Part shown: positions 1 through 16,837 of the stretch, in pieces
Layout: every line of letters begins with the position of its first letter
Position numbering within the stretch: the first letter of the stretch is position 1
Virus record (IMG/VR): IMGVR_UViG_3300017774_005745
Coordinates: 64,001 to 128,000 of that record
Strand: one strand, 5' to 3'
Length of the DNA stretch: 64,000 bases
Source: a virus
Made by a program: the position numbers and the translations under genes
The notes under the pieces: generated by a model
Seen by the model: only the letters and a program-made list of their open reading frames with translations
Told to the model about the DNA's origin: nothing
Database searches by the model: none

Positions 1-1
1 C

Positions 2-85
2 CAAGCAGGAAAGCTGGTCGGTAAGGGAATCAATAAGGTGACTGGTTTCAAGCCCAAGAAGACTGAACAAGAGGCAACTAAGTAA
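2..85 (+). CDS. 3' end of an upstream gene (partial): basic Gly/Lys-rich C-terminus ...QAGKLVGKGINKVTGFKPKKTEQEATK*
   Basis: Open frame from the window edge to TAA 83-85, which overlaps the portal ATG (TAATG). The tail resembles the basic tail of ORF 29453-29854. Confidence 0.6.
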   Translation, partial: QAGKLVGKGINKVTGFKPKKTEQEATK

Positions 86-2163
86 TGTCACTCATTGATG
101 GCGTAAACGGAACCTCTCGATTCTCCGGTCAACGTGGGAGAACAGCCGACGGCTTGTCGAGGAGTGGTGTTCGTTACCCATCTCCCTTCTTCGACATCGG
201 TCATACGTATCTCCCTCCGTCTCTGAAGGCACTCCTTCGGTGGTGCCGGTACTACTATCTCGTGAACCCGCTCATCAATGCGGTCATTCACAAGATGTCA
301 GAGTACCCCATTACAGAGATTGTCATCGACGAGAAGGACCCAGCTATCAAGGATAAGTGGGACACTCTCCTCGGTGGTGTTCTTCGCTACAGACCATTTC
401 AGATTGAGATCGGTCTGGACTACTACACTTACGGAATTTGCTTCGTAACGATTCACTTCCCGTTCGACAAGTTCCTCATTTGCCAATCCTGTAAGCACAA
501 AGAGAAGGCTTCGAAGATTGCCTACAAGTGGAGAAACCTCGATTACGTTATCGAGTGTCCGAAGTGCAACACCGTCGGACCTGCCAAGGTTCAAGACTTC
601 TACAAGCGAGACTTGAACGGTATCCGTCTGATGCGGTGGAATCCCGAGTACGTGAACGTCGACCCCGCGTTCGCTGGGGCAAAGCCTGTCTACACCTTCG
701 AGCTCCCGCTTCAGGTACGAAACGATGTTCTTCTTGGAAAGAAGAGCGTCCTCGATACCATTCCAGACACCTTCATCGAGGCGATGAAGAGAGGGAAGTA
801 CGTTCGGTTCTCGGACGACAACATCTTCGTCTTCAGAAGACCGATCATCAGCCAGAAGGACTCTGGATGGGGCATGCCGCTTATCATGCCTGTCCTGAAG
901 GATACTTTCTATCTTCAGATTCTCAGGAAGGCGCAAGAGGCTATTGCACAGGAACACATCGTTCCAATGCGCGTTCTCTTCCCCCAGGGAAACAGCAGCA
1001 CATCTGACCCGTATACAACTATCTCCCTCGACTCATGGAAAGGAAGAATCGAAGGAGAAATCGCGAAGTGGAAGTACGACCCGAACTATATTCCAATTCT
1101 CCCTCTTCCAATCGGGAGTCAAACAATCGGCGGGGACGGTAGAGCGCTGATGCTTCACCAGGAAATGGAAGTCTGGTCGAGGCAAATCGTAGCTGGTATG
1201 GGGGTGCCCCAGGAGTTCGTCTTTGGTGGAATGCAGTACTCAGGAAGCAACGTCTCAATGAGAATGCTTGAGAACATGTTCCTCGGGTACAGAACAGACC
1301 ACGACCTGATGCTGAATCAGTTCACAATCAAGCGTATTGCTGCGTTCATGGGATGGCCTGCAGTGAAGGCCCATATGCGTCGCTTCAAGATGGCCGACGA
1401 CCTGCAACGTTCTGCCTTCTTCTTCCAGCTTAACCAGGGTCAGAAGATCTCTAACCAGACTCTTCTGCAAGAAGTTGATTTCGACCCAACTACGGAAGAT
1501 GCACGTATCAAGGGTGAACTCGATAGGCAGATTGAACTCAATCGCAAGATGCAGGTTGCACAAGCTTCTATTCAGGGCGAGATGCAGTTGGTCCAAGCCC
1601 GGTATCAGAAGCAGGCAACCGAACTGGTTTCTCAGGCTCTCCAAGGCGGAGCACCTGGGGCTCCCCAAGAAGCTGTCAATGCTCAAGCAGGTGCTGGAGT
1701 TGCGTCTGGTGCGCCTCCTGGTGCGCCGGAAGCACCCCAACCTGGAGAGCCACAAGCTCCTGGTCAGCCGGGGACCACAGGTCAAGAGGGCGAGATGCTC
1801 CAAGGACCTCAGGTCAATCCGGGAATGCCCGAAGGGTCTACGGTCTCAGCGGAGAACGCACAACAGGCACCCGCAGAAGGACTGCCCGCAGGAATTGCGA
1901 GCCCTCTCGATATGGGTACTCAGGGTGGAGGATTCAACCTTCTCTATCTCGCTCGAAGGGCAGCCACTACCCTTCAGAAGATGGACGAAGGCTCAAAGAT
2001 GTCTGAGATGAATAGAATGCAGATGACGAGTCCACAGCTCTATAGCTTGGTTCTTCAAATCATTCAGTCTGAGAAGGGTTCTCAAGAGAATCCATTGAGC
2101 GCCACTCAGAGTCCACAGCCGACTCTGAAACCATCGAGACGTCCATCCTCCACTGGTGTGTAA
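85..2163 (+). CDS. Phage portal protein with inserted Zn-ribbon and long Q/P/G/A-rich C-terminal extension
   Basis: Portal-like sequence pattern (YYLVNPLINAVIHKMSEYP; GWGMPLIMPVLK; QIVAGMGVPQEFVFGG), CQSC...CPKC insert, and location in a virion gene cluster with terminase, protease and capsid. Confidence 0.8.
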   Translation: MSLIDGVNGTSRFSGQRGRTADGLSRSGVRYPSPFFDIGHTYLPPSLKALLRWCRYYYLVNPLINAVIHKMSEYPITEIVIDEKDPAIKDKWDTLLGGVLRYRPFQIEIGLDYYTYGICFVTIHFPFDKFLICQSCKHKEKASKIAYKWRNLDYVIECPKCNTVGPAKVQDFYKRDLNGIRLMRWNPEYVNVDPAFAGAKPVYTFELPLQVRNDVLLGKKSVLDTIPDTFIEAMKRGKYVRFSDDNIFVFRRPIISQKDSGWGMPLIMPVLKDTFYLQILRKAQEAIAQEHIVPMRVLFPQGNSSTSDPYTTISLDSWKGRIEGEIAKWKYDPNYIPILPLPIGSQTIGGDGRALMLHQEMEVWSRQIVAGMGVPQEFVFGGMQYSGSNVSMRMLENMFLGYRTDHDLMLNQFTIKRIAAFMGWPAVKAHMRRFKMADDLQRSAFFFQLNQGQKISNQTLLQEVDFDPTTEDARIKGELDRQIELNRKMQVAQASIQGEMQLVQARYQKQATELVSQALQGGAPGAPQEAVNAQAGAGVASGAPPGAPEAPQPGEPQAPGQPGTTGQEGEMLQGPQVNPGMPEGSTVSAENAQQAPAEGLPAGIASPLDMGTQGGGFNLLYLARRAATTLQKMDEGSKMSEMNRMQMTSPQLYSLVLQIIQSEKGSQENPLSATQSPQPTLKPSRRPSSTGV

Positions 2164-2176
2164 GTAGGGAGCTTCA

Positions 2177-2767
2177 ATGGTATCGCCACTCAAAGTAAAG
2201 ATGTTCGTTATCAGCGACCTTGTTCCGATCGCTGTCAATGTCATTACTCTGGGTCTCGCGATTGGAGCTCACCTTACTCCACAAGACCCACCCATCCCTC
2301 TCCCTGGGTGGGTAATTCTGTGGGCCGTCGTAGTTGCCTCATTCGCGATGACGATTGGGATGTTCGTTCAAAGACGGAACCTCTTCAAGCAGTATCGGTT
2401 CGTCTGTGACGGCATCATTGTGGGTTGGGCGTCTGACGAGTACGCAGTGAAGCCAGAGGAGTTTCAAGAACAGCTTCGAGAGCTTCTTGCCATTCTCGCT
2501 ACTGGCTTTCCGAAGGCTGGAGAGGCTCTGTATGGTTGCGCTGTTCTATTCAGGGAGCCGAAGTGGGCTCTGGATACGAGAGCCGGGAAGCTTCAGAACT
2601 TCGTTGCAGGTCTTCAAGATGGGATGTTCCTTCAGGTTGGTTGGAACGCCGACCTCGATAAGACGGCGCTGAAGCATGAGCTCACTCACCGGGTGTTTCA
2701 AGTCCAGGCGGGTGACCCTCCTCAAGATGTAGCGCATAAGAACATGAGCGACCTTGGAATCTTCTGA
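2177..2767 (+). CDS. Membrane-anchored putative zincin-like metallopeptidase
   Basis: Two N-terminal hydrophobic segments and an HExxH motif (KHELTHR) near the C-terminus. Confidence 0.5.
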   Translation: MVSPLKVKMFVISDLVPIAVNVITLGLAIGAHLTPQDPPIPLPGWVILWAVVVASFAMTIGMFVQRRNLFKQYRFVCDGIIVGWASDEYAVKPEEFQEQLRELLAILATGFPKAGEALYGCAVLFREPKWALDTRAGKLQNFVAGLQDGMFLQVGWNADLDKTALKHELTHRVFQVQAGDPPQDVAHKNMSDLGIF

Positions 2768-2769
2768 AG

Positions 2770-2799
2770 GCTAAAAAACGACTCAACCTACGAGTCGTT
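2770..2799. terminator. Intrinsic (probably bidirectional) terminator
   Basis: Stem AACGACTC/GAGTCGTT (2777-2784/2792-2799) at a convergent junction; the - strand reads hairpin-TTTTTTAGC. Confidence 0.7.
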
Positions 2800-3015
2800 C
2801 TCCTTTGGAAAGAAGATACAGAGCTTCTCCAATCTCCCATGAATCTCTCTGAAACGCTCCGAGAGCTCTGACATCTCTTGGACGAGTGCTTTCGGAGCAC
2901 CCTGCATCTGTATCTTCACGAACAGGTTGTACTGCGTTCTCCAGAGGGCAAGAGTGTCCTCCGTGAACCGCTCCATCTCCTCTTTGGAGATGGGCTCGCT
3001 TACATCAATCCCCAT
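2788..3015 (-). CDS. Hypothetical protein (75 aa, MGIDVSEP...)
   Basis: ATG 3015 with GAGGAG RBS overlapping the end of the upstream ORF; helical composition. Confidence 0.65.
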   Translation of the reverse strand: MGIDVSEPISKEEMERFTEDTLALWRTQYNLFVKIQMQGAPKALVQEMSELSERFREIHGRLEKLCIFFPKENDS

Positions 3016-3400
3016 CGAGCTTCTCCTCACAGACAGAGCAGAGGGCTTCCTGGGACGAGAGTTCGGAATACGAGACTCCGAATACGTCCAGGGTGATTGA
3101 GTCGATGACTGCTTCGACTTCATCGGTGGAATCGATTACATTCAAGGAGAGCCAAGCAATAGAGCACAGCTCGTGAAGAGTGGCCTCTCCTGCCGTGAGC
3201 CTGTCTTCCACAATCATTGGCTGCCCGCTCTTCTTACCTCTCCCAAGCACACCGTGGTCGATGGTTACTGCTCGGTCTCCAATCCAGATAGGTTTGCTAC
3301 AGACTGGGCATATCTTCGAGCTTGGTGGTTTGTACTCCCGTACCTCTTGCGTTTGGGCCTGAGGTTGGATTTGAGCGAGCACATCTTCGTACTTAAACAT
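3005..3400 (-). CDS. Small Zn-finger protein (CPVC...HELC, CSVC)
   Basis: ATG 3400 preceded by GAAAGAG; Cys/His ligand pattern; operon-like overlaps. Confidence 0.65.
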   Translation of the reverse strand: MFKYEDVLAQIQPQAQTQEVREYKPPSSKICPVCSKPIWIGDRAVTIDHGVLGRGKKSGQPMIVEDRLTAGEATLHELCSIAWLSLNVIDSTDEVEAVIDSITLDVFGVSYSELSSQEALCSVCEEKLDGD

Positions 3401-3617
3401 CGTCTCTTTCCCCGTCCGCTCCAATCAAGAATAGAGACCCTTCCTGAGCAGCACATGACATGTGAGAGAACCTCTCTTCTGTTTGGTCGTCGAACTTGGA
3501 TCTCAGTAGCTGGTAAGTGCTTCCATCATCGGAGGTGGCGTATCGGTACGCGGTGAGTCGAATCACAGAGTCGTCTTCTGTGAACTCATCACCGCACACA
3601 CAGCAGGTGAGAGTCAT
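3393..3617 (-). CDS. Small Zn-finger protein (CCVC...HMSC)
   Basis: ATGA overlap with the upstream stop; same CxxC...HxxC spacing class as the neighbouring ORF. Confidence 0.65.
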   Translation of the reverse strand: MTLTCCVCGDEFTEDDSVIRLTAYRYATSDDGSTYQLLRSKFDDQTEERFSHMSCAAQEGSLFLIGADGERDDV

Positions 3618-4003
3618 TTGGGAGGCATCCGAATCACGAGTTGAAGTACCGGAGAACCGAAGCCGCAAGTAGTACAGCCATCCAGGATTCTGTCGTTGTC
3701 TACGAGCACATACTCATCTGGAAAGCCGTAGTACTTGCTTCCTTGATAGAAGCCCGGAAGCGACCTCTGGGTGTTGTCCAGGTCGTGCTCGAAGGAGTCT
3801 TTGATACACTGGTCACACTCCCACGATACAAGGCAGTTGGTGGTTTGTATGAGGTGCTTTATCCATCGATCCATGATGGGACACTCACAACAGTCGTACG
3901 GTTTATCGCACTTTCCAACTGTTCGGTGTGGTGCATTTGCTCCTCCATTTACCTCGAAGAGGAGCGGGCAAAATGCCATTCTAAATTCGCTCTCATCATG
4001 CAT
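3614..4003 (-). CDS. Cys-rich hypothetical protein
   Basis: 129-aa ORF with several CxxC pairs (CCEC, CDQC, CTTC); tightly packed operon. Confidence 0.65.
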   Translation of the reverse strand: MHDESEFRMAFCPLLFEVNGGANAPHRTVGKCDKPYDCCECPIMDRWIKHLIQTTNCLVSWECDQCIKDSFEHDLDNTQRSLPGFYQGSKYYGFPDEYVLVDNDRILDGCTTCGFGSPVLQLVIRMPPK

Positions 4004-4088
4004 TTATTCTGCTCAGTGCAAGTTGGAAGCGGGTGTGAAAGTACAGCACAAAACTAAGAGTGAATGAGGCCAGGAACAGTTTCCACAT
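3996..4088 (-). CDS. Possible 30-aa hydrophobic peptide (MWKLFLASFTLSFVLYF...)
   Basis: ATG 4088 with AGAGGT RBS; stop overlaps the next start. The longer 4244 start lacks RBS spacing. Confidence 0.35.
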   Translation of the reverse strand: MWKLFLASFTLSFVLYFHTRFQLALSRINA

Positions 4089-4241
4089 TTTTACCTCTCT
4101 TCTTTTTCTCTTTCTTCTTGGCCTTTTGAATCCAGAACAGAATGTGCCCCAAGATAGCGTTATCCATATCTTCTTGGTGCATTTGGAGCTGCGACCGCTC
4201 TTCCAAGTGTCCCCCGTATATGAAGGCCAGCTTTTTGCTGA

Positions 4242-4276
4242 CAACTCCTTATACCCAGACAGTTGAATGACTTTGT
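4242..4276 (-). promoter_or_regulatory. Phage promoter-like motif (CAA-N20-ATAAG)
   Basis: GGGTATAAG at 4248-4256 (- strand) with CAA 23 nt upstream, heading the 4088-2788 operon. Confidence 0.5.
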
Positions 4277-4394
4277 TGACCTGGCCTCAGCGATGACGAT
4301 AAGGTCGTATTTCAAGGTTCAATGACCTCTGCTGCGATGAGGTAGAGCCGGGAACGCCATAAACCACTGCGCAGGGTGGCCGAAAGAGGATGAC

Positions 4395-7300
4395 GTGGAT
4401 AACCTGACTCCAGAAGGTTCGTTCGACGTATTGAAGAACAATATCACCACTACCATCTCTTCTTTCTTTCCGTACGAAGGAAAAACGCGCCGTCTCCAGA
4501 TTGACAAAATCTGGGTGGACGACAAGCTCAATACCGAAGACATCCAGTCCCAAGCCCAGGCAAAGGACATGGATAGGACGTGGGGCGTTCCCGTTAAGGC
4601 GGACATCTCGCTCGTCGATAAGTTGACCGGCAAGGTCATTGATAAGAAGTCGATGACTGTTGCAAGACTTCCGAAGCTCACCAATCGATACGGATTCATT
4701 GTCGATGGAAATGAGTATCAGGTCGACCACCTGTTTCGTTTGAAGTCGGGAGTATACTCCCGCATCCAGGACAACGGTGACTTGGAGTCCGAGTTCAACC
4801 TTGTTCGTGGTCCTGCCGGTAACCGCTTCTCCATCAAGCTAGAAAGAGAGAAGAAGAGATTCTTCATCAAGAAGGGCGATGCACACATCCCTCTCTATCC
4901 CATCCTCAAGGCGATGGGAGTCTCAGATGATCAGATGGAGAAGGACTGGGGAAAGGAAATCTTTCTCGCGAATAAGCCCAAGACAGAAGACAAGACCCTC
5001 AAGTCGCTTCAGTCTTTCTTCAAGAAGACCTCCTTCGATGATGTCGTTGAGCCTACCGATGTAGCAGGCTACGGTAAGTACGTTCACGACTTCTTCGAGA
5101 AGACGGTTCTTCGCCCCGACACGACAAAGATTACTCTCGGTCGAGAGGCGTCTAAAGTAGACGGCCAGGTTCTTCAGATTGCTGCGAACAAGATTCTCGG
5201 TGTCTCTAGAGGAACGCATCAGCCAGACGACCGAGATAGCCTCGCCTTCAAGGAGATTGTCTCGGTCGAGGACTTCCTTCCTGAGAAGATTGAACGCGCT
5301 GCCAAGACCATCAAATCAAAGCTTCGCAACACGATTGACCTCAAGGACAAGCTGTCTGTGTCTGAGGTTGTATCAGCGGACCTCTTTGCCCGCCCCATCC
5401 GTGAGTTCTTCACAAAGGGCGGCTCACTGACAGAGCGACCGGACCAGACGAACCCAATCTCAATGATGTCCGGTCATCGTAAGACCACCCTCATGGCCTC
5501 GGACTTGGGCGGTATCAAGCGAGACCACTCACTCACCGATGAGATGCGTGTCGTGAATCCGAGCCACTTCGGCTTCCTCGACCCAATGCACACGCCTGAG
5601 TCTGAGCGTACTGGCATCACCCTGCATCTTGGCATGGCTGCTCGAAAGAATGGAAAGGAGCTGGAGACTCCTGTCTTCGACATCAAGAAGAACAGCATTC
5701 AGTACATGACGGCTCCCGCGTTCCACGAAGTGTCGGCGGTTCTTCCCGACCAGGTTCGTTGGGTCAAAGGAAAGCCAGTTCCAGTTGCTCCAACGGTCAA
5801 GGTCAAGCTCCCAGGCGGCTCCATTGAGCTCCGACCATTCTCTGAGGCTTCGTTCGTATTGCCCTCCTCCAAGGGCATGTTCGATATGGCCTCGAACCTG
5901 ATTCCCTTCCTTGCATCCAATCAAGGAAACCGCGTCTCGATGGCGGACAAGCAGATGGAGCAGGCTATCAGTTTGAAGTTCCGTGAGTCGCCTCTTGTGC
6001 AGTCTAAGACGGACCACGCTCAAGCTGGAATGACCTTCGAGAAAGTACTCGGAGGATTCAGTTCGCACAGAGCCTCTGTTTCAGGAACTATCAAGTCAAT
6101 CAAAGACGACCACATCGTCATCAACGACGGTAAGAAGAACCACCAAGTTCACCTCTACAATCACTTTCCCTTGAATGACCCGAAGGGAATGATGCACTCT
6201 GAGGCGGTGGTTGCTGTTGGAGACAAGGTCACTCAAGGACAGGTTATCGCCGACACCAACTTCACCAAGAAGGGTGTCTTGGCTCTTGGGTCCAACCTTC
6301 GAGTTGGTTACATCCCGTACAAGGGGTACAACTACGAAGACGGTATCGTCATCTCCGAGACGGCGTCTCAGAAGCTCAGCTCAGAGCACTTGCATAAGAA
6401 GTCGGTTGAGTTCGACCCAGAGAACGATGTGGTCTCGAAGCAGAAGTTCCTGTCGTTCGCCGCGACACGGGCCAATCAGCTTACGAAAGAGCAAATCAAT
6501 CTCCTCGACGATGATGGTATCGTTCGAGTTGGTTCGAAGGTCAGTCCTGGGCAGGTGCTGATTGCCGCCGTCGGAAAGAACCTCGCGTCGCGCCAGAGTG
6601 GGGCTCTTGCTGCCCTCGGCAAGAGAGCATTCCAGCCATACAAGGATAAGTCACTTGTATGGGATGAAGACCATCAGGGAGAGGTCGTCAAGGTAATCAA
6701 AGACCCGTCTGGAAAGAGTGCGAAGGTCTACGTCAAGACAGTCGAACCTCTCGTTATCGGCGACAAGCTCTCAGGACGGCACGGTAACAAGGGCATCGTG
6801 ACCATGATCCTTCCGGACCATGAGATGCCATTCACCAAGGACGAGAAGGGGGAGAAGAGACCTCTTGAGGTTCTTCTCAACCCTACTGGCGTTCCGACTC
6901 GAATCAACGTCGGACAGGTGCTTGAGACTGCCGCTGGGAAGATTGCGGAGAAGACGGGCAAGACATACATCGTCAATAACTTCGAAGGACCCATCTCGGA
7001 CAACACCCAGAAGGTCATTCAAGAGCTCAAGCAGCACGGTCTCTCAGACGAAGAGAACGTCTACGACCCAATGCACCCGAGTAAGGTCCTTGGTTCTGTT
7101 CTCGTCGGTCCTCAGCACCTTCTCAAGCTCAAGCACCAAGTAGAGAAGAAGCTCACCGTTCGAGGCGGCGGGACTGACCTCAATGGACGCCCTCTCACCT
7201 ACGACGTCGACAAGTCTCCTACGAAAGGTGGCGAACGAGGCGGTCAAGGAGTTGGAGCTCTCGACTTCTACTCTCTGTTGGCGCACAACGCTCGTCACAA

Positions 7301-10300
7301 CATTCGTGAGATGGCGACGTACAAGTCTGACATGCAGGATTCTACCTTCTGGAACATGATTCAAGAAGGGTATGAGCCGCCGCCACCGAAGGCTCCCTTT
7401 AGCTATCAGAAGTTCGTTGGTCTCTTGAACGGACTGGGCGTGAATGTCGATAAGAAGGGCTCTGTTCTTCAGCTCACTCCGCTCACCGATGCAAAGGTAA
7501 TGGAGATGGCAGGAGGAGCACGCGGTGAGCTCTCGAAGCCTCACCTCCTGCTTCGTGCAAAAGACTTGAGAGAAGAGAAGGGTGGCCTCTTCGACCCCAT
7601 CGCTACAGGCGGTCTCTCTGGCAACAAGTGGAGCTTCATCAAGCTCATCGAGCCAATCCCAAATCCCATCTTCGTTGGCTCAAACCACCGGCCTGGACCC
7701 GTTCCTTCCCTTCTTGGATTGAAGATGAAGGAGTTCGAGTCTGTGATGACGGGGGAGACGAAGCTCAATGGAAAGACGGGAGGGCATGCAGTCCTCGATG
7801 CTCTCAAGAAGGTGGATGTTCCTGGAGAGATGAAGTCTCTCCGAGAGAAGCTCCCGACACTTACTGGAGCTGACCTGGACAGAGCAAACAAGAAGCTGAA
7901 GTACCTCATGGCTCTCTCTGAGACAGGGCTGAGTCCCGACGTGGCGTACATGATGAAGGTGGTTCCGGTCCTTCCTCCTGCTTTCAGACCCGCGACCGTT
8001 ACCCACAAGGGAGACCTTCAAACTTCGTCACTCAACGGTCTCTACAAGAACATCGCAATCCTCAACAACAAGCTCACTGAGGTTGATCCGAGAACGTACT
8101 CAGAGACGCACAGAGCTCCGCTACGTTCTCAACTCTATGAGAGCGTGAAAGCGCTGCAGTCTATTGGCGGTTCTGTCGGTTACGACATGGATACTCCTGC
8201 GAGCTCCAAGAGAGCCCTGAAGGGTATCCTTGACATCATCGGAGGAGGAGAGGGAGAGCAGCCTAAGGATGCCTTCTTCCAATCCAGACTCATCAAGCGC
8301 CGTCAGAACCTTTCGATTCGTTCTACCATCGTTCCAGAGCCCAAGCTTGGAATTGACGAGGTCGGTCTCCCTCGTGGTGCGGCAATGGAGCTCTACAAGC
8401 CATTCGTTGTCGCCGAACTCTTCAAGACGGGCTTCCGGCCTCTTGATGCGCAGCTTGAGATGAAGAAGGGGTCGAAGGTCGCATTCGATGCTCTTGAGCG
8501 TGTGGTGAAGGACCGTCCTCTTCTTTTGAAGCGTGACCCCTCTCTCCACAAGTTCTCAGTCATGGCGTTCACCCCGAAGCTGATTGAGGGCAAGGCTATT
8601 CAAATCCACCCTCTCGTCACTGGCGGCTATAACGCAGACTTCGACGGGGATACCATGGCAGGGACTGTTCCTCTCACCAGAGAGGCAGTCGATGAAGCGA
8701 AGAAGATGTTCCCGTCTAAGAACCTCTTCTCGCCGACAACTGGCGCTGTCATGTACTCGCCAACTCAAGATTCAATGTTGGGACTCCACCTCATCTCTCG
8801 ATGGGGCACTAAGACGTCCAAGACCTTCGCGTCTCCAATCGAGCTCAACAAGGCCTTCGACAAGGGTGAGGTGACTCCGACAGACGTAGTGAAGGTCGGA
8901 GGGAAGGAAACGACTCTTGGTCGGCTTCTCTTGGAGTCGAGAATGCCGAGAGACTTCCACCTCAATAAGGACATTCTCCACAACCCTCTTTGGGTCATTG
9001 ATAAGAAGTCACTGACTTCTCAAATCATCACTCCGCTTGCAAAGAACCATACGAGAGACTTCGCCCATGTCGTTGACCAATTGAAGGACCTGGGTAACGA
9101 GTGGGCCTACAAGATGGGGTTCTCGTTCGGTCTGAAGGACCTTGCGACGATTCCGCAGCGTGGGAAGATTCTTGGAGATGCCAACAAGCTCGCCATCGAC
9201 ATCAAGAAGAATGTCAAAGACAAGGGAGAGCAAGACAAGCAACTCATCGAAGTCTACCAGAAGGCCACAGAGCAACTGGAGCACGCAGCCAGAATGCCTT
9301 CAGGTCAGAACAGACTGGCAGACATGGTTATCTCTGGGGCACGTGGTAAGCCTGAGCAGCTTCGCCAGATGATTGCGGCTCCCATGCTGGTCCAAGACTC
9401 CCATAACAACACCATACCGACCCCTATCCTTCGAAACTACGCAGAGGGATTGGATATTGGAGATTATTGGCTCGCACAGCACGGTGCTCGAAAGGGCACT
9501 TTGCAGCGCGTTCTTGGCACTTCTGAGCCTGGTGTTGTTTCGAAGGACATCATCAACTCCACTATCGCCACCATCATCGCCTCTCCTGACTGTAAGACGA
9601 CGCATGGGATGCTTATGGAGGTCGGTCACAAAGACATCAACGACCGCTACCTCTCAAAGAGCTACAAGCTCAAAGACGGACACGAGATCAAGGCAGGCAC
9701 CCTCATCACTCCGGAAGTTCTCAACCACTTCAAGAACTCAAAGATTGATAAGGTCTTGGTACGGTCTCCTCTTAAGTGCCAGCACGGAGAGGGAATCTGT
9801 GCGAAGTGCTTTGGTCTGAACGAGAGCGGCAAGCTCCACGAAGTCGGCATCAACATCGGAGTGCTTGCAGGGCAGGCACTCTCAGAGCCTGCTGTTCAGA
9901 TGGCGATGGATGCCTTCCATACGGGAGGTGTTGCATCCGGTAGAGGTGCAATGTCTGTGGACCGTCTGACTCGTCTCAGGAACGCGCTGAATCTTCCAGC
10001 AAAGCTCAAGAACTCTGCTACACTCTCAAGAGTCACTGGTAAGATTACAAACATCAAGAAGGACGCCGTCGGTGGTGTGGACCTCTTCATTGGAGACGAG
10101 AAGCACTTCGTTCCAAAGGACCTGGTCAATCACGACATCAAGGTGGGGGACGAGGTCAAGAAAGGACAGCAGGTCTCTCACGGATTCACGAACCCACACC
10201 ATCTTCTCCCACTCACTGACATGCACACTGTTCAGAACCACCTGACCAATGAGATGTATGGTGGGCTGTATGAGAAGGAAGGCGTTCGAAAGAGAAATGT

Positions 10301-10658
10301 CGAGGTCGTCGTACGTGCTCTCACGAATCTAACGAAGGTAAAGGACCCAGGGTCGAGCGACTTCATGCAGGGCGATATCGTTCCGACTTCTGTCGTTGAG
10401 GAGTTGAATAGAGGCCTGTCGAAGGATAAGAAGCACATCACACACGGGCCTATACTGAAGAGCATCTCTCAGATTCCGCTCACAGGAACGACCGACTGGA
10501 TGAGTCGCTTGAACTACAGAGAACTTCACAGCACTCTGCAACAGGCGGCGGCACAAGGATGGAAGTCAGATATCCACGGCAAGAATCCAATCCCAGGCGC
10601 TGCCTTCGGTGCTGAATTCGGGAAGCCTTCTGCAGGTAAGCCTAAGGGTCACTACTAA
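4395..10658 (+). CDS. rpoBC: DNA-directed RNA polymerase, single-chain beta-beta' fusion (phage-encoded)
   Basis: Beta motifs GYNYED, GDKLSGRHGNKG, NPTGVPTRINVGQ, KLKHQV; beta' motifs catalytic NADFDGD (8631-8651), bridge helix HGARKG, trigger loop EPAVQMAMDAFHTGG, and Zn site DC...RSPLKC...ICAKC. GTG start. Confidence 0.97.
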   Translation: MDNLTPEGSFDVLKNNITTTISSFFPYEGKTRRLQIDKIWVDDKLNTEDIQSQAQAKDMDRTWGVPVKADISLVDKLTGKVIDKKSMTVARLPKLTNRYGFIVDGNEYQVDHLFRLKSGVYSRIQDNGDLESEFNLVRGPAGNRFSIKLEREKKRFFIKKGDAHIPLYPILKAMGVSDDQMEKDWGKEIFLANKPKTEDKTLKSLQSFFKKTSFDDVVEPTDVAGYGKYVHDFFEKTVLRPDTTKITLGREASKVDGQVLQIAANKILGVSRGTHQPDDRDSLAFKEIVSVEDFLPEKIERAAKTIKSKLRNTIDLKDKLSVSEVVSADLFARPIREFFTKGGSLTERPDQTNPISMMSGHRKTTLMASDLGGIKRDHSLTDEMRVVNPSHFGFLDPMHTPESERTGITLHLGMAARKNGKELETPVFDIKKNSIQYMTAPAFHEVSAVLPDQVRWVKGKPVPVAPTVKVKLPGGSIELRPFSEASFVLPSSKGMFDMASNLIPFLASNQGNRVSMADKQMEQAISLKFRESPLVQSKTDHAQAGMTFEKVLGGFSSHRASVSGTIKSIKDDHIVINDGKKNHQVHLYNHFPLNDPKGMMHSEAVVAVGDKVTQGQVIADTNFTKKGVLALGSNLRVGYIPYKGYNYEDGIVISETASQKLSSEHLHKKSVEFDPENDVVSKQKFLSFAATRANQLTKEQINLLDDDGIVRVGSKVSPGQVLIAAVGKNLASRQSGALAALGKRAFQPYKDKSLVWDEDHQGEVVKVIKDPSGKSAKVYVKTVEPLVIGDKLSGRHGNKGIVTMILPDHEMPFTKDEKGEKRPLEVLLNPTGVPTRINVGQVLETAAGKIAEKTGKTYIVNNFEGPISDNTQKVIQELKQHGLSDEENVYDPMHPSKVLGSVLVGPQHLLKLKHQVEKKLTVRGGGTDLNGRPLTYDVDKSPTKGGERGGQGVGALDFYSLLAHNARHNIREMATYKSDMQDSTFWNMIQEGYEPPPPKAPFSYQKFVGLLNGLGVNVDKKGSVLQLTPLTDAKVMEMAGGARGELSKPHLLLRAKDLREEKGGLFDPIATGGLSGNKWSFIKLIEPIPNPIFVGSNHRPGPVPSLLGLKMKEFESVMTGETKLNGKTGGHAVLDALKKVDVPGEMKSLREKLPTLTGADLDRANKKLKYLMALSETGLSPDVAYMMKVVPVLPPAFRPATVTHKGDLQTSSLNGLYKNIAILNNKLTEVDPRTYSETHRAPLRSQLYESVKALQSIGGSVGYDMDTPASSKRALKGILDIIGGGEGEQPKDAFFQSRLIKRRQNLSIRSTIVPEPKLGIDEVGLPRGAAMELYKPFVVAELFKTGFRPLDAQLEMKKGSKVAFDALERVVKDRPLLLKRDPSLHKFSVMAFTPKLIEGKAIQIHPLVTGGYNADFDGDTMAGTVPLTREAVDEAKKMFPSKNLFSPTTGAVMYSPTQDSMLGLHLISRWGTKTSKTFASPIELNKAFDKGEVTPTDVVKVGGKETTLGRLLLESRMPRDFHLNKDILHNPLWVIDKKSLTSQIITPLAKNHTRDFAHVVDQLKDLGNEWAYKMGFSFGLKDLATIPQRGKILGDANKLAIDIKKNVKDKGEQDKQLIEVYQKATEQLEHAARMPSGQNRLADMVISGARGKPEQLRQMIAAPMLVQDSHNNTIPTPILRNYAEGLDIGDYWLAQHGARKGTLQRVLGTSEPGVVSKDIINSTIATIIASPDCKTTHGMLMEVGHKDINDRYLSKSYKLKDGHEIKAGTLITPEVLNHFKNSKIDKVLVRSPLKCQHGEGICAKCFGLNESGKLHEVGINIGVLAGQALSEPAVQMAMDAFHTGGVASGRGAMSVDRLTRLRNALNLPAKLKNSATLSRVTGKITNIKKDAVGGVDLFIGDEKHFVPKDLVNHDIKVGDEVKKGQQVSHGFTNPHHLLPLTDMHTVQNHLTNEMYGGLYEKEGVRKRNVEVVVRALTNLTKVKDPGSSDFMQGDIVPTSVVEELNRGLSKDKKHITHGPILKSISQIPLTGTTDWMSRLNYRELHSTLQQAAAQGWKSDIHGKNPIPGAAFGAEFGKPSAGKPKGHY

Positions 10659-11749
10659 TGGCTGTTACAAATCAAGGAACAATCCCGGCGTTCATCGAGT
10701 CGGGTAGAGTACTCGATGTCGATATCAGTTCGTTCACTCTCTCTGTTACGACTCAGTTCTCGAAGAAGCCCCAGACCGGAATTACCTGGTCCTCTCCATA
10801 TCTTCACTTTGTGAATGGAGAAGGAATCCACTTCATGCCGGAGGTTGGGAGTCTTTGTTGGATTTGTTTCCCCTCTGATGGAAACCGGCCCTTTGTACTT
10901 GGATGGGCTCCTGCTGCAGACGAAGGAAACTTCAGAGCACGCAGGCCAGACATGAATCCTGGTGACCTCTACCTCGGCACACGAGACGAGAACTTCCTGA
11001 TTCTCCGTCGTGGTGGGGTAGTTCAAATCGGGGGAGGCCCGCTTTCTCAACGGCTCTTTCTCCCCGTCACAAATACAATCAAGGATTTCTGTGAGAACTA
11101 CTCTCTCCAGACTCTTGGAGGAGAGCTCAGTTGGACTGTTCAGAGGTCTGAAAACGATACCGACGGCAACAGACCCACTGTCTTGAAGGTCCAGGCAAGA
11201 GAGTTCGCTTCGGACGAGAAACCCCTTGCAGAGCTTCAAGTCGGTTCCCACGGAAGCGGCCAGAATACTATCTTGAGTCTGACAATCAAAGAATCTGGAT
11301 CTCAAGGAGCTGCGAGGAAGATTTCCCTTACACTCGGTAAAGATGGGAATGTGACCTGGGAAGTTGCTAAAGACGTCGTCTGGACAGTTCAGGGCAAGTT
11401 TACCATCGACGCCCAGCAGGATGTGACTGTAAAGAGCGCGGCTAAGGTCACCGTCAGTGGTGGGAGTACGGTTGAAGTACAAGGCCAGAGTGGTGTAACA
11501 ATTGAATCTGCTGTTGGAATCATCAACGTTAAAGCATCTACGATTAAAATGGGCTCTATGGTCTTGGTCGGAAATGCACCCCAACCGGTGGCACTTGCTC
11601 CTGCCTTGATAGGTTGGCTAGCAGCTCACATCCATTCTATCGTCCCAAACCCTGCCCTCGCTCTTCCAGGACCGCCTCAACCGACGACCCCTCCATTGGT
11701 GCCACCACCTGCACCTGCAATGACTTCGACCACTCTTCTGGCAACCTGA
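10658..11749 (+). CDS. Baseplate central spike (gpV/gp5/VgrG-like)
   Basis: N-terminal OB-fold signature (MPEVGSLCWICFPSDGNRPFVLG), beta-strand repeat region, and C-terminal HxH (AHIHS) metal-binding tip. Confidence 0.75.
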   Translation: MAVTNQGTIPAFIESGRVLDVDISSFTLSVTTQFSKKPQTGITWSSPYLHFVNGEGIHFMPEVGSLCWICFPSDGNRPFVLGWAPAADEGNFRARRPDMNPGDLYLGTRDENFLILRRGGVVQIGGGPLSQRLFLPVTNTIKDFCENYSLQTLGGELSWTVQRSENDTDGNRPTVLKVQAREFASDEKPLAELQVGSHGSGQNTILSLTIKESGSQGAARKISLTLGKDGNVTWEVAKDVVWTVQGKFTIDAQQDVTVKSAAKVTVSGGSTVEVQGQSGVTIESAVGIINVKASTIKMGSMVLVGNAPQPVALAPALIGWLAAHIHSIVPNPALALPGPPQPTTPPLVPPPAPAMTSTTLLAT

Positions 11750-11762
11750 TTCAAGGAGACCT

Positions 11763-14591
11763 ATGCGCCCGCTTTTCATTGATGAGACCTCTGAAGACTC
11801 GAAGACAAAGGAAGCGGGATTCACTCACCGTCTTTCTGAGACTCCTGATAACTGGGGTCAAGAGATTGGTAGCGAGCTTCATCGTCAGCTTCCGTTCTTG
11901 TCAGACTACGAGGTGAACGTCACCCTCGACAAGGTCGACCAAGGCCGGGGCTTTGCGTTTGGATACGCAGACATCTCGAATAGAACTGAGCGCCCAGAGG
12001 TTGAGCACGAGGAAGCGGGCATTCCCCACATCCGTGTTCCGCTCATTGCAGAAGAGCGTCAGGTTCGTCCGTTCTCCGTCTTTCTAGACGGTGAGAGAGT
12101 TCTTCCTCTCGGTGAAGAGAGAATTCGTGAGACTCTGTTCAACCCAGGAATGTTCGACCTCTCCACATCCGTGCCGAGAGACCCAAGTCTTGTCGAGCCT
12201 CTGATGCCTCCGCAGCGTTCTGGTATTGGTATGGGCGGCGAATACAAGATGGCCATGGCGTATCCAGAGCCCGCTTCTATTGCCACGAATCTCGATTACC
12301 GAGATGAGTGGCTCCGGAAGTTCGTTGGGACTGCTCTCTTCCAGAAGGCTATGGAGCTCCAGAAGCAGTTCCTGTCTCTTGACCAGGAAGACCTCTCACA
12401 GCGAGAGATGGAGCAGACGATTGAAGAGTCCTCTGGCCGTGCCTCACAGAGAATGGCCAAGAATCTCCAACGAGACGCTCTCCACTTGGAGAAGAGGAAC
12501 CTGGATGTAGAACTTCTCGCCGCTCAGGCAGGGGTTCCAACGTCTGAGGCTCCTTCTCCTCACGAGCAAGGACTCGATGCTTCGGCTCCAGAAGGTGCGA
12601 TGGAAGAGGCACCAGAGGAAGCTGCTCCTGCTCCCAAGGCTCCAAAGGAGAAGAAGGCCGGTATTCCGAAAGGCATGCAGGAACTTGCCAAGGGAAAGAA
12701 GTTCTTTCAGATGGATCCATACGTCCAGCGGAGAGTTGCTGCCAATAGTATGGGGAATGCGGCCAGGAAGCAGAAGAACCACGGCCACAAGATGCTCGAC
12801 ATCAAGGATGGACAGGTTCAGAAGAAGCGCGCAAAGGAGCTTCTTGAGAAGAATGCCTTCAAGCACATCTCGAAGGAGCAGTGGGAAGCCATCTACAAGA
12901 GCGACAAGATTCAGAAGATGATTCAGAAACACATGACCCACGACCACCCTGAGGTTATCAACGAGGTCTATTCGCTCGCAGCTAACCAATACGGATATCA
13001 CCCAAAGGTATACCCACCTTCTCCAGGTCAGCAGGCTCAGAAGGCACAGGCAGCTAACATGGGTGGGGCACCGAAGCCTGCGGCTGCCGCTCCAGCGGCC
13101 AAGCCAGCTACGAAGACGGCATCACTTCTTGAGGCAATTGCTCCGACGCTTCGTGAGACAGACAGAGACGCATTCGTTGAGAAGGTTGCAAACGACGCCA
13201 CCCTCCGTGCGGGCTTCCGTCGTTCTGGAATTGCCTCGGTTCTTGTCAACGTGATGGATACGAAGCTCGCATCCGCAAGGGACCGTATGTCTGCCCTTGC
13301 AGACGCAATCGAACCCTCCGTGGTTACCTTCCAGAAGCTCCCAGGTGGGGACTTCCTCGTCAAGTCAGCAAACGTTCAAGCGTTTGCTGGTGGCGAGCAG
13401 GCTCAGGGTCAAGTGGTTCCGTTCCAAGAAGTCGCCGAAGCAATCGGAACTGAGCCAGCGAGAGCGATGCAGCCAGGACAGATTGCAACTGCTGTGTCTG
13501 ACCCTGTTAAGGGCGACTCAGCAGACGAGTCTGAGTTCGACTCCATCTCTGAGTTTGGCCGCTACAAGGTCCAGGGAACCGACGGCAAGGAGCGGGAAGG
13601 CTGGGTATTCCCTCAAACGTTTGCTTGGGATGAGAACCTTACTCCACAGAAGACGGGTCTCTTCATCTCAGACAACGCGCACGCCATCCAGCAAGACTTC
13701 GCGGGCGCACGGGTTGCTGCAGAAGACATCAACCTTCCTACGGATATCCCCAAGGGTCTTGGAATCTTTCACTCGAAGAACGGAGACTCTGCCTCTGCTC
13801 CCATCGAAGTGAAGTTCGGTATGACTGGGTCTGACGGAGTTCCGAAGTACGTTGGTATTGATTCATTCGGAAACGAAGTCAAAGTCTCGGTTGTTCCTGG
13901 CCTCAAGACTCCTCAGAAGATTAGCGAAGGAGAGTATGCCCTCCCTCACGGTTGGGGATTCACTCGCCTTCCTTCGAAGGTCTCTCTTTCCGAGAAGTCG
14001 GATAGCATCGGCACTCAGTCGAAGTTGAAGAAAGAGAAGACATCTGCAGTTCTCTTCTACAACGGCGCATTCAACATCGTTGGTGGGTGTGGCCTCGATA
14101 AGGTGTCGGCTGACCTCCGCCACAGCATTGATGCGGTCGGTGCCGAGTTCATGCTGGGACTTCTCGGAGTTGATGGCGTTTCTGCCAAGCAGAAGGTTGC
14201 GGAAGCCCGTAAGATCGGGTCAGTGACCTTGACGGGACTCAAGACCATCGTTCCTCTCGCAGAGCGTTTCCAGGAGTCTATCAAAACTGCCTCGGCACTT
14301 CTGTCGAAGATTCCAAATCTCAAGAGAGACCTCATCAAGGAGGCCTCGATGATGGAGGACCAGGGAACCGTAGATAAGGTTCTTGCCCTGAACTTCGTCA
14401 ATCCTGAGAACCTCACCACGTTCATCGAGTATCTCCCTGAGCTTGAGAGATGCAGCGAGAACATGGCGGAGATGGTTCTTGCGGGCTACATGGGCATGAG
14501 AGAGATTCCTGTAGGTGCTGTAGAGCGTTCCATGAAGAACATGGAAGAGGTTGTCCAGAGCCTCAAAGCACTTCAGTATACTCAGGAGTAA
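11763..14591 (+). CDS. Large putative internal head protein (942 aa), modular, with about 11 K-x-A/S motifs
   Basis: Motifs KEAG, KMAM, KKAG, KNAF, KTAS (x2), KLAS, KSAN, KTSA, KVSA, KEAS separate compositionally distinct blocks. Function is inferred. Confidence 0.5.
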   Translation: MRPLFIDETSEDSKTKEAGFTHRLSETPDNWGQEIGSELHRQLPFLSDYEVNVTLDKVDQGRGFAFGYADISNRTERPEVEHEEAGIPHIRVPLIAEERQVRPFSVFLDGERVLPLGEERIRETLFNPGMFDLSTSVPRDPSLVEPLMPPQRSGIGMGGEYKMAMAYPEPASIATNLDYRDEWLRKFVGTALFQKAMELQKQFLSLDQEDLSQREMEQTIEESSGRASQRMAKNLQRDALHLEKRNLDVELLAAQAGVPTSEAPSPHEQGLDASAPEGAMEEAPEEAAPAPKAPKEKKAGIPKGMQELAKGKKFFQMDPYVQRRVAANSMGNAARKQKNHGHKMLDIKDGQVQKKRAKELLEKNAFKHISKEQWEAIYKSDKIQKMIQKHMTHDHPEVINEVYSLAANQYGYHPKVYPPSPGQQAQKAQAANMGGAPKPAAAAPAAKPATKTASLLEAIAPTLRETDRDAFVEKVANDATLRAGFRRSGIASVLVNVMDTKLASARDRMSALADAIEPSVVTFQKLPGGDFLVKSANVQAFAGGEQAQGQVVPFQEVAEAIGTEPARAMQPGQIATAVSDPVKGDSADESEFDSISEFGRYKVQGTDGKEREGWVFPQTFAWDENLTPQKTGLFISDNAHAIQQDFAGARVAAEDINLPTDIPKGLGIFHSKNGDSASAPIEVKFGMTGSDGVPKYVGIDSFGNEVKVSVVPGLKTPQKISEGEYALPHGWGFTRLPSKVSLSEKSDSIGTQSKLKKEKTSAVLFYNGAFNIVGGCGLDKVSADLRHSIDAVGAEFMLGLLGVDGVSAKQKVAEARKIGSVTLTGLKTIVPLAERFQESIKTASALLSKIPNLKRDLIKEASMMEDQGTVDKVLALNFVNPENLTTFIEYLPELERCSENMAEMVLAGYMGMREIPVGAVERSMKNMEEVVQSLKALQYTQE

Positions 14592-14594
14592 CGA

Positions 14595-15443
14595 ATGAAA
14601 CACCCAGCTCATCACTTCATCAAGTACTTGATGGTGAAGGACCCCAAGACTGCCAACGCTGAGATTCTAAAGCGCTTGGAGGACTTTGGATTTCTATCTC
14701 CAGATGCGCCTTACCTGGAATTCATCAGACAAGAGCTCAAGGAAACTCCAGTAGGGTTCGACCCAGCAAATCGAATCCACCGTCCTTCGATGAGCTACCT
14801 TCGTCGTCATGGTATCTACGAGCTCTTCCATCCGTCTGACGCGATTCGAGAAGCATGGAAGATCCTCACCGACCCTTCTATTCGACTGAACGTTGAGCAG
14901 GCCTTGATGGCACGGTTGGATAGAAAAGCCATCGCTCTGAAGCTGAACAAGAAGAACGGCTGGCATCTCTCTGAGTCTGGGATGAAGGCGTTCCACGATA
15001 CCTTCTGGAACGTCGAGCTCCTCACTTGGGATGAGTGGGGCCGGTTCCTCTACGGCAGGTCAGGGATGTACGAGCGATACATGGCCATGCTCCAGGCGTC
15101 TCCTGAGCTCGCCATGTTCCATCTCCAGCTTCAACAGAACGTTGAGTCAAAGAACATGATTCAGCGCACGCAAGAGATTGCGTACTTCACCCTTGAGGAA
15201 GTCAATAGGAAGCCGGGCACAGGGCCAGACAAGGTGAAGGCCATCGGTGTACTTGGAAAGACCATCGTTGACTGTCACGATGCTCTCTCGACCTCTGATA
15301 TGGCGCTCAAGGACATCCTCAAGAACTTTGAGAGATTCCGCATGGACCATCCTCAGATTCCTCCTCCGGACATCAAGCAGCTCGCTCCAGGTGGGAGCTA
15401 CACTGGCAGTGGTGTTGAAGAGAAAGAAGTAAAAACCCACTGA
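14595..15443 (+). CDS. Hypothetical protein (282 aa), possible HTH DNA-binding or small-terminase-like
   Basis: Helical protein with an HTH-like segment (RKAIALKLNKKNGWHLSESGMKAF). Function is unconfirmed. Confidence 0.3.
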   Translation: MKHPAHHFIKYLMVKDPKTANAEILKRLEDFGFLSPDAPYLEFIRQELKETPVGFDPANRIHRPSMSYLRRHGIYELFHPSDAIREAWKILTDPSIRLNVEQALMARLDRKAIALKLNKKNGWHLSESGMKAFHDTFWNVELLTWDEWGRFLYGRSGMYERYMAMLQASPELAMFHLQLQQNVESKNMIQRTQEIAYFTLEEVNRKPGTGPDKVKAIGVLGKTIVDCHDALSTSDMALKDILKNFERFRMDHPQIPPPDIKQLAPGGSYTGSGVEEKEVKTH

Positions 15444-15449
15444 GGTTGT

Positions 15450-16121
15450 ATGCCCTTCAAGTCCAAAGCTCAACAGCGATTTATGTTCGCAACCCACCCA
15501 CGCATGGCAAAGCGTTGGGCACACGAGACCAAAAACATGAAAAAGCTCCCAGAGAAGGTGAAGCAAGCGGGAATCCCAAAAGGGCTTAGAGCTATTGCGG
15601 AATCTGCTTTTGATACTGCCGGAGACCTCTCAAAGGCACAGCAGTACGCTGCTAGCAGAAATGCCGCGAACATCCACGGCAGAGGTCTAGGAATGGCCGC
15701 CCGCGATGGGTCTTTGATGAGTAAGTCGTATAATAAGAGACTTGCTAAGTCTGAAATTGAGCTTGCAAAGAAGCAGGTCGATTCTTCCTATCCAACTACA
15801 AGAGCAAGCAGACAACTCCAACACGGTATTGAAAATAGAAGAATGAGTAGAGACCTCCTATCTAAAAAGGCGGAGGCTGATAAAATCAAGGGCGGCCTCG
15901 CGGACCACCTGAAGTCCTCGGACTTCCCAAAGAAGAAACTGAAGGCAGGTCAGACGGTGGAGAAGGAACACACCAAGGACCCTGCAATCGCCAAAGAGAT
16001 TGCAAAGGACCATCTTACCGAAGATGGGAACTACTACGAGAAGTTGAAGAAGATGGAGAAGTCTGCCTTTGAGAAGATGTCTGCCAAACTGAAGAAGAAG
16101 ACGTCTGGGAAGTACTGCTAG
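15450..16121 (+). CDS. Three-module protein: PFKSKAQ module + AT-rich middle module + DUF5661-like C-terminal domain
   Basis: C-terminal VEKEHT...AKEIAKDHLTED.NYYEKLKKME matches my recollection of DUF5661. Modules are joined by KQAG and KKAE. Confidence 0.55.
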   Translation: MPFKSKAQQRFMFATHPRMAKRWAHETKNMKKLPEKVKQAGIPKGLRAIAESAFDTAGDLSKAQQYAASRNAANIHGRGLGMAARDGSLMSKSYNKRLAKSEIELAKKQVDSSYPTTRASRQLQHGIENRRMSRDLLSKKAEADKIKGGLADHLKSSDFPKKKLKAGQTVEKEHTKDPAIAKEIAKDHLTEDGNYYEKLKKMEKSAFEKMSAKLKKKTSGKYC

Positions 16122-16130
16122 GAGTTCAAA

Positions 16131-16592
16131 ATGAACATGTGGTCTGAGCGTAGTTCGGATGGGAAAGTGCAATCAGCTCAGTCGTCTGAGCGAGATGCAG
16201 CAAAGCAGGTCCTCGCGCCTTTCGCAGAGAAAGAGGCAGACCAAGGCGTAAAGCCATTCGACCCAATTAACTTCCAAGAAGTACTCAGCCCGGAGAACTA
16301 CGAGGCTGAATTCGCCATGAAAGAGGATGACATCATCTTTCATATCTGGCCTTGGAAGCTGCACGAAGCAGATAAGAATGGAAGGGTGCGTCCTCGATTC
16401 AAGAAGGACTTCGTTCAGCACCTGAACTTCGCGTTCGGGAAGGTCTTCTTCAGTCGATGGACCTTCGAGTTCGATGAGGACATGGGCTCTTACTTCGTCA
16501 AAGCTACGGGCTTTGGTGCTTCTCAGTTCGCACGGGAGCTCGCTCTGGAGGCAATGGAAGTCCTTCACAAGGAGATGTCTCGAAAGGAGTGA
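16131..16592 (+). CDS. Hypothetical protein (153 aa)
   Basis: GGAG RBS, operon position, coherent codon usage. Confidence 0.7.
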   Translation: MNMWSERSSDGKVQSAQSSERDAAKQVLAPFAEKEADQGVKPFDPINFQEVLSPENYEAEFAMKEDDIIFHIWPWKLHEADKNGRVRPRFKKDFVQHLNFAFGKVFFSRWTFEFDEDMGSYFVKATGFGASQFARELALEAMEVLHKEMSRKE

Positions 16593-16595
16593 CCT

Positions 16596-16835
16596 GTGTC
16601 AGAAAAGCCAAGCTACCGCTCGGAAGTTCACACTCTTGAGGAAGTCATCAAGCTCCGTAATCCAGAGCTGGACGATGGTGAGATTACAGACTTCCTGAAC
16701 ATCATTCGTGCTCGTATTGAGCACGTTCGCCAGGTTATTGAAGAACACGAAGGAACTGCTTCTACTTCTGGGCCAGATTGGGAGAAGTTCAAGTGGGTAT
16801 ACGAGCGAGACCGTTTGAAGGAGTTGGGACTCTGA
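16596..16835 (+). CDS. Hypothetical protein (79 aa)
   Basis: GTG start after AAGGAG; ends just before a terminator. Confidence 0.65.
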   Translation: MSEKPSYRSEVHTLEEVIKLRNPELDDGEITDFLNIIRARIEHVRQVIEEHEGTASTSGPDWEKFKWVYERDRLKELGL

Positions 16836-16837
16836 GG

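Follow-up and report, generated by a model that had tools for sequence, protein, structure and literature searches.

The DNA analyzed here, a 64,000-nucleotide stretch (hereafter the window), comprises bases 64001–128000 of the 196,807-bp IMG/VR virus record IMGVR_UViG_3300017774_005745 (G000 in the coordinates below), which carries a terminal repeat of 123 bp and has a completeness rating of 100%. A single uninterrupted open reading frame (ORF) on its plus strand (4395–10658) encodes a complete bacterial-type RNA polymerase (RNAP) catalytic core as one polypeptide, with beta followed by beta'. We show below that this RNAP is genuine, a single-chain enzyme of the bacterial type from a phage clade that is abundant and barely described, and examine the sigma factor, the candidate promoters and the virion genes that accompany it.

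A complete RNAP core in one polypeptide

The ORF starts with a GTG codon and specifies 2,087 aa (~230 kDa). Pfam models place Rpb2 domains 2, 3 and 6 (aa 147–926) ahead of Rpb1 domains 1–5 (aa 1170–1988), with E-values of 8.9e-62 for Rpb2_6 (210 bits), 6.2e-27 for Rpb1_2, 1e-17 for Rpb1_5, 8.5e-12 for Rpb1_3 and 8.6e-9 for Rpb2_3; all five Rpb1 domains are matched and three of them are above cut-off, the remaining RNAP domains scoring under their own cut-offs. These matches and an alignment with the Escherichia coli beta and beta' subunits (1,342 + 1,407 aa) agree with the original prediction, made from the sequence alone, that one frame holds the cellular-type motifs of both subunits in order. 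It can be divided as follows:

4395–7460, plus strand: beta module of the fused RNAP, aa 1–1022 (Pfam Rpb2_2, Rpb2_3, Rpb2_6)
7458–7463, plus strand: beta/beta' junction codons G1022/S1023, in the context GVNVDKKG/SVLQLTPL (alignment with E. coli beta and beta')
7461–10655, plus strand: beta' module of the fused RNAP, aa 1023–2087 (Pfam Rpb1 domains 1–5)

The end of E. coli beta (GINIELEDE) aligns to GVNVDKKG and S1023 aligns to beta' residue ~19, leaving a linker of zero length; the nearly linkerless join anticipated at 7440–7490 is thereby placed to the codon. The length of the junction is identical in 33 family members and in the Salmonella phage Arash and the Vibrio phage D69, the RNAPs of which are only ~30% identical to the one in the window. 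Searching E. coli genomes by blastn with the junction region returned no match.

The same alignment indicates that the catalytic apparatus is kept, including the GDK..GRHGNKG motifs with their lysines, NADFDGD (aa 1413–1419; window 8631–8651), the bridge helix (HGARKG), the cysteines of the second zinc site (Zn2) and the N-terminal trigger-loop motif, the C-terminal arm of that loop being unalignable across the SI3 gap. Also kept are the two sigma docking sites, namely the flap of beta and the clamp-helix region of beta'. Counting segments of at least 12 residues, 597 residues are missing relative to E. coli and no phage-specific insertions are present. The absent segments of beta are SI1 (b215–296, b356–374), SI2 (b932–1047) and b1169–1210, and those of beta' are the first 18 residues, b'66–97, b'146–176 and SI3 (b'949–1194). 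The 32-residue deletion b'66–97 corresponds to the beta' N-terminal zinc-binding domain (Cys70, 72, 85 and 88), of which no cysteines remain, and is present in 35 of 35 aligned phage sequences. The protein is ~190 aa below the smallest beta+beta' pair in our bacterial sample (2,276 aa in total). The enzyme had been described in advance as streamlined, and it is indeed smaller; the difference consists mostly of the absence of insertions mapped against E. coli (SI1, SI2, SI3), together with the loss of the beta' zinc-binding domain.

Distribution and phylogeny of the fused RNAP

Relatives of this protein are encoded on 425 IMG/VR stretches, and more than 100 protein clusters of 2,080–2,130 aa with 48–88% identity occur on contigs of up to 215 kb. 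As the same architecture recurs in all these clusters, a chance ORF and an assembly or frameshift artefact are both ruled out. A further 79 IMG/VR loci display three architectures: full single chains of 2,030–2,120 aa; a split form, in which beta and N-terminal beta' (1,450–1,530 aa) are accompanied by a separate beta' C-terminal piece (~600 aa); and forms cut after ~1,110–1,150 aa. The beta/beta' junction is fused in all of them.

To place the family, we ran a quick IQ-TREE search (LG+G4) on 55 aligned sequences (1,919 columns), comprising 29 phage RNAPs and 26 from bacteria of about 10 phyla, the latter drawn from the first 600 pattern matches; neither an archaeal or eukaryal outgroup nor a mixture model was used in our trees. 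All 29 phage RNAPs form one clan apart from the 26–27 bacteria, with a Shimodaira–Hasegawa-like approximate likelihood ratio test (SH-aLRT) value of 100, and the branch between them measures ~1.5 substitutions per site in this tree and ~1.0 in a second one. The highest identity of the window RNAP to any sampled bacterium is 26–34%. On these grounds a recent capture from bacteria, under which the RNAP should nest in a bacterial clade, is rejected: in the phylogeny, run with bacteria and with the mReC phages discussed below, the phage clan lies outside all the bacteria sampled.

Within the clan, clade A (14 rows) is entirely composed of single-chain forms and includes the window RNAP, whereas its sister, clade B (15 rows), is entirely composed of split forms and includes phages Arash (OQ632216) and D69. 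The RNAPs of Arash and of the Vibrio phages D69, D148 and D181 share with that of the window the identical linkerless junction, the loss of the zinc-binding domain, a location downstream of the portal gene and a sigma factor homologue in the genome. They differ from it in having only ~30–32% identity, in diverged catalytic motifs (AADYDGD and an altered bridge helix) and in being split in beta' after residue ~1,500, with the second gene 0.6–4.8 kb downstream; in Arash the two pieces are Gp206 and Gp216. In the Arash genome paper these two proteins are called beta and beta', and the fusion goes undescribed (PMC10585845).

Two observations on individual family members may be added. Six relatives (P0003, P0005, P0030, P0066, P0079 and P0093) carry 1–3 inteins each, of 265–522 aa, with LAGLIDADG or Hom_end Pfam domains. 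The inteins occupy four hot spots in the most conserved motifs, namely beta PMHTPES, beta NPTGVPTR, a site just past NADFDGD and the trigger-loop FHTGG, corresponding to residues ~403, 835–847, 1421–1430 and 1843 of the window RNAP (P0001), which itself has no intein. In Arash, the gene immediately after the beta' C-terminal piece (L003:23130–24548) is an annotated DNA helicase, Gp217, with 1,148 virion spectra, close to the count for Gp216. Gp217 may be a RapA-like partner of the RNAP in clade B; BLAST found no homologue of it in the genome containing the window.

A single RNAP gene and a phage-encoded sigma factor

The complete genome has one match to the RNAP, which is therefore single-copy, and its six-frame translation yielded no second catalytic motif of the two-barrel (double-psi beta-barrel) kind. 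Searches of the complete genome for alpha (PF01000, PF01193) and omega (PF01192) gave no match, with positive controls in 14 of 14 genomes; the sequence leaves room for the use of host alpha by the fused enzyme. The window indeed lacks alpha, omega and sigma genes, as had been noted from its sequence. When the search for alpha and sigma was widened to the whole genome, the absence of alpha held and that of sigma did not, because a sigma70-family factor is encoded outside the window:

G000:14799–15644, plus strand: sigma70-family protein, 281 aa, outside the window, among virion-type genes

This protein is a sigma70-family member with domains 2, 3 and 4. Pfam Sigma70_r3 matches it above cut-off (27.1 bits), and the Pfam model of sigma region 2 gave no match. 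A profile of the family, built from 34 homologues, retrieved sigmaS, sigmaA and RpoD chains from the PDB (E 4e-13, positions 106–280), and aligns over positions 54–273 against 6pfv. The top 50 Foldseek matches of its AlphaFold2 (AF2) model, which has a mean predicted local distance difference test (pLDDT) score of 81, are all sigma factors (probability 1.0), the leading ones extending over 254–289 columns. The protein is 32% identical to Arash gp10 and adjoins homologues of the structural proteins gp6 and gp8, as it does in Arash. It was found in all four complete metagenomic relatives, in Vibrio phage D69 and in Arash, and together with the RNAP in 7 of 7 genomes checked; at a larger scale, its family comprises 64 protein clusters on the same contigs as the RNAP. 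Given this sigma70-family factor in its own genome, the fused RNAP is probably sigma-dependent rather than factor-free.

A candidate promoter on the minus strand

The motif GGNATAAGA occurs at 19 sites in the genome, all of them on the minus strand (19:0, against 2–3 expected per strand), which is the strand of the replication and non-structural genes. Twelve of the 19 sites are intergenic and upstream of minus-strand genes, most at 13–156 nt. Four relatives have the motif in a ratio of 24:0, always on the strand opposite to the RNAP, including one genome stored in reverse orientation. When 39 sites are aligned, CAAAA at −19 to −15 also proves to be conserved, separated from ATAAGA by a 17-bp spacer, with GG at the extended −10 position, so that the full motif reads CAAAA-N14-GGNATAAGA. 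This arrangement of a −35 element and an extended −10, 17 bp apart, would suit recognition by domains 4, 3 and 2 of a sigma factor, and the motif looks like a phage-specific promoter of the sigma70-family type. An initial k-mer pass over intergenic regions had yielded only tRNA-derived words. The window contains five sites, against 1.0 expected:

17751–17759, minus strand: promoter-like motif GGGATAAGA, followed after 20 nt by an internal ATG of a conserved minus-strand gene (17125–17805)
20429–20437, minus strand: promoter-like motif GGGATAAGA
55396–55404, minus strand: promoter-like motif GGGATAAGA, intergenic
61405–61413, minus strand: promoter-like motif GGCATAAGA, intergenic, 156 nt upstream of a minus-strand gene
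63122–63130, minus strand: promoter-like motif GGGATAAGA, intergenic, 13 nt upstream of a minus-strand gene

Outside the window, a 19-kb minus-strand block (G000:40715–59640, locus L274) has a GGCATAAGA site 47 nt ahead of its first gene. The block encodes PolA (a family A DNA polymerase with a 3'–5' exonuclease), a DnaG-type primase, a DnaB-type helicase, a RecA-like ATPase, a superfamily 2 (SF2) helicase, ThyX, UDG and a PD-(D/E)XK nuclease.

Linkage of the RNAP to virion genes

The RNAP gene belongs to a block of virion-type genes, of which the following are pertinent here:

85–2163, plus strand: portal protein gene (weak PHROG portal matches; 31% identity, E 2e-81, to the Arash gp204 portal)
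10658–11749, plus strand: central tail spike of the gp5/VgrG/gpV-like type (Pfam Phage_base_V OB domain, E 2.8e-4, under cut-off; Foldseek)
18074–19867, downstream of the RNAP: TerL
28237–29361, downstream of the RNAP: major head protein

The RNAP is translationally coupled to the spike gene, the stop codon of the one and the start codon of the other overlapping as TAATG at 10656–10660. This overlap had been read correctly from the sequence, and the identity of the spike is now backed by its AF2 model (pLDDT 66), whose best PDB matches in Foldseek are central spikes (E 2e-8, probability 1.0), including those of extracellular contractile injection systems (eCIS), the Photorhabdus virulence cassette (PVC), the type VI secretion system (T6SS) VgrG, phi92 gp138, P2 gpV and the R2 pyocin. 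The head-type genes noted further downstream are those for TerL and the major head protein.

The gene order, comprising the portal, a variable 1.5–3.5 kb, the RNAP, the spike, genes for proteins of 942, 282 and 153 aa, a minus-strand gene and TerL, is common to all 18 close IMG/VR relatives over the extent of the locus available in each. Portal, RNAP and spike occur together in 15 of these, the other three loci being truncated. The portal also precedes the RNAP in Arash and Vibrio phage D69, and a portal-sized ORF lies just upstream of the RNAP in most of the 79 further loci. In mass spectrometry of Arash virions, Gp206 gave 3,516 spectra, the most of any protein, Gp216 gave 1,210 and the sigma factor Gp10 gave 467 (PMC10585845). 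Taken together, the Arash spectra, the long-standing association of the RNAP gene with the portal gene and its coupling to the spike gene make it likely that the enzyme is packaged in the virion. The original proposal of a virion-packaged and injected enzyme thus gains on the side of packaging, from the portal-RNAP-spike synteny and from the Arash data, and for the phage of the window it continues to be argued from these relatives.

A model for virion-delivered transcription and its alternatives

These observations can be combined in a model in which synthesis of the RNAP would coincide with that of the structural proteins, and the enzyme and the sigma factor would both enter the particle and be delivered along with the phage DNA. 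The beta-beta' tether would substitute for the assembly platform otherwise provided by the alpha dimer, such that the few ejected copies could be active without bimolecular assembly. The ejected holoenzyme would then start transcription of the replication and early genes on the opposite strand at CAAAA-N14-GGNATAAGA, with independence from the host RNAP as the outcome. Virion delivery and alpha independence, which we infer, are both well motivated, and we regard the model as a whole, namely a virion-delivered single-chain core with a phage sigma factor reading CAAAA-N14-GGNATAAGA independently of the host RNAP, as probable if far from assured. We more tentatively extend it to a very large clade of tailed phages (170–215 kb) that would share a self-sufficient, alpha- and omega-free single-chain core and a three-domain sigma factor, both taken into the particle beside the portal and ejected to transcribe from phage-specific −35/extended −10 promoters; this we consider quite possible.

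Several points weigh against the model. The Arash particles were purified on a sucrose gradient only and yielded 116 proteins, among them ribonucleotide reductases and many other metabolic enzymes, and the authors of that study themselves allow for carry-over of abundant proteins (PMC10585845). The N-terminus of the RNAP has no recognizable capsid-targeting tag, and K-x-A motifs of the head-protease type are not significant in it (8 versus 12.5 expected, z −1.5). A k-mer search upstream of the plus-strand structural genes, including those for the RNAP and sigma, gave no convincing promoter motif, which leaves the transcription programme incomplete. Finally, what pairs the sigma factor with the fused RNAP, rather than with the host core, is their co-occurrence.

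The composition of the Arash preparation and the lack of a capsid-targeting tag or processing-motif signal would be in keeping with an RNAP that is not packaged at all: it could act as a middle or late intracellular enzyme while the host RNAP transcribes the early genes, and its signal in Arash would reflect carry-over of an abundant DNA-binding enzyme. We think this unlikely, while taking it seriously, as it does not account for the retention of the RNAP downstream of the portal down to ~30% identity, its translational coupling to the spike in clade A or the position of the sigma gene among homologues of the Arash virion proteins gp6 and gp8. Moreover, if the product of a lone RNAP gene in a late-type block were intracellular only, no matching polymerase would be on hand for the motif-bearing early genes when infection begins. 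Look-alikes of the sigma70 consensus are also depleted, a point in favor of the model, with 35 in the genome versus 91±9 expected and one in window positions 1–20000 versus 9.5±3.4, as judged by a first-order Markov model without calibration on other phages, the genome figure being an uncalibrated one. If the co-occurrence of sigma and RNAP is instead taken as incidental, the phage sigma factor might redirect the host core to the GGNATAAGA promoters, as T4 gp55 and SPO1 gp28 do, with the fused RNAP using another factor or none. Many large phages without an RNAP do encode sigma factors for the host core (Iyer et al. 2021). We nevertheless hold this to be improbable here, given that the sigma factor accompanies the fused RNAP in every genome checked and its family lies on RNAP contigs, that the fused RNAP keeps both the clamp-helix region and the flap, and that both proteins are on the Arash virion list (PMC10585845).

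There is least to be said for a recently captured bacterial rpoB-rpoC operon that was subsequently fused, or for the phage being a member of mReC, an affiliation raised in the original prediction; either is very improbable. The bacterial-type sequence of the RNAP, detectable by ordinary Pfam models, is what such readings would lead one to expect, and the mReC phages likewise are tailed, deep-branching phages, some near or above 200 kb, with beta and beta' detectable by cellular models (Weinheimer & Aylward 2020, PMC7481178). Capture is countered by the low bacterial identity and the separate phage clan described above. As for mReC, two IMG/VR contigs matched to the accessible part of the mReC list, L198 (149,482 bp) and L239 (152,423 bp), served as references. 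Both encode beta' (~900 aa) and then beta (~1,000 aa) in separate genes, unlike the one fused ORF with beta first, and by BLAST their RNAPs are nearer to that of E. coli than to the window RNAP. These two and three similar contigs form a clade of their own (SH-aLRT 100) on a long branch outside the 29-member clan. Long branches meet at this point of the tree, which was rooted on no outgroup, and mReC and this clan may or may not be sisters or share a viral ancestor. The mReC contigs were reached only by an alignment query; the beta' of Rhizobium phage TM30 as sole query found no IMG/VR relatives, and TM30 entered the tree as a partial (beta' only) long branch. The mReC capsid is of the gp23 type (PF07068) and its TerL belongs to PF03237 (PMC7481178), whereas the major capsid protein of the window phage has no Pfam match and its TerL is best matched by PF05876, with PF03237 at 19.6 bits under a cut-off of 22. 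The related IMG contigs are absent from the accessible part of the mReC contig list. Accordingly, the evidence does not support placing the phage in mReC as described.

Relationship to other fused and phage-encoded RNAPs

Fusions of rpoB and rpoC are known in cellular genomes such as those of Helicobacter and Wolbachia, where the C-terminus of beta is likewise joined to the N-terminus of beta' in the same order. In contrast to the phage enzyme, these retain alpha, omega and the zinc-binding domain and are ~750 aa longer. The Wolbachia fusion was recovered in our searches (2,839 aa) and nests among Proteobacteria in the tree, and thus arose independently of the phage fusion. The phiKZ/AR9 RNAPs resemble the present one as phage double-psi beta-barrel enzymes without alpha or omega, one set of which is packaged in the virion for early transcription. 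They differ in being made of 4–5 polypeptides, in having virion and non-virion paralogue sets, in lacking a canonical sigma factor and in being far more diverged; the window RNAP, by comparison, is one chain in one copy with a sigma factor in the genome. The crAss-like virion RNAP (gp66 type) and YonO are also single-polypeptide two-barrel phage RNAPs, and the crAss enzyme is virion-delivered, but both are undetectable by cellular beta/beta' models, unlike the window RNAP with its 210 bits on Rpb2_6.

While the known multisubunit RNAPs of phages (phiKZ, AR9, crAss) are highly diverged, fragmented or sigma-free, the window RNAP aligns residue by residue with the cellular enzyme and yet is one chain, without alpha, omega or the zinc-binding domain, and with a canonical sigma factor. 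No fused, sigma-associated, cell-like phage RNAP was found in the mReC paper (PMC7481178), in Iyer et al. 2021, in a 2026 review of jumbo phages or in further searches, and no description of the clade was found in the reviews consulted, the sole mention found being the Arash genome paper (PMC10585845). Should the enzyme prove active alone, it would constitute, with sigma, a two-polypeptide holoenzyme and the simplest known sigma-dependent RNAP of the cellular type. It would then allow a direct test of whether alpha serves only as an assembly platform, and would offer a natural minimal system for RNAP assembly, promoter recognition and sigma-dependent initiation, as well as an orthogonal transcription system. 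The existence of cultured relatives, Arash on Salmonella and D69 on Vibrio, makes these predictions testable at the bench.

Other genes in the vicinity of the RNAP

Between the portal and the RNAP, the minus strand of the window bears an ORF of 139 aa (3005–3424) that is kept in 10 of the 18 close relatives at 29–72% identity. The 942-aa protein after the spike (11763–14591, plus strand), for which no family matches were found, is enriched in K-x-A tripeptides (14 versus 7.2 expected, z 2.8), as is the product of G000:59792–61630 (17 versus 6.8 expected). Beside TerL, a minus-strand gene (20446–21132) encodes a 228-aa protein with an N-terminal HTH_17/MerR-type helix-turn-helix (HTH; E 1.7e-9) and a faint similarity to Sigma70_r4_2, which may regulate transcription of the structural block.

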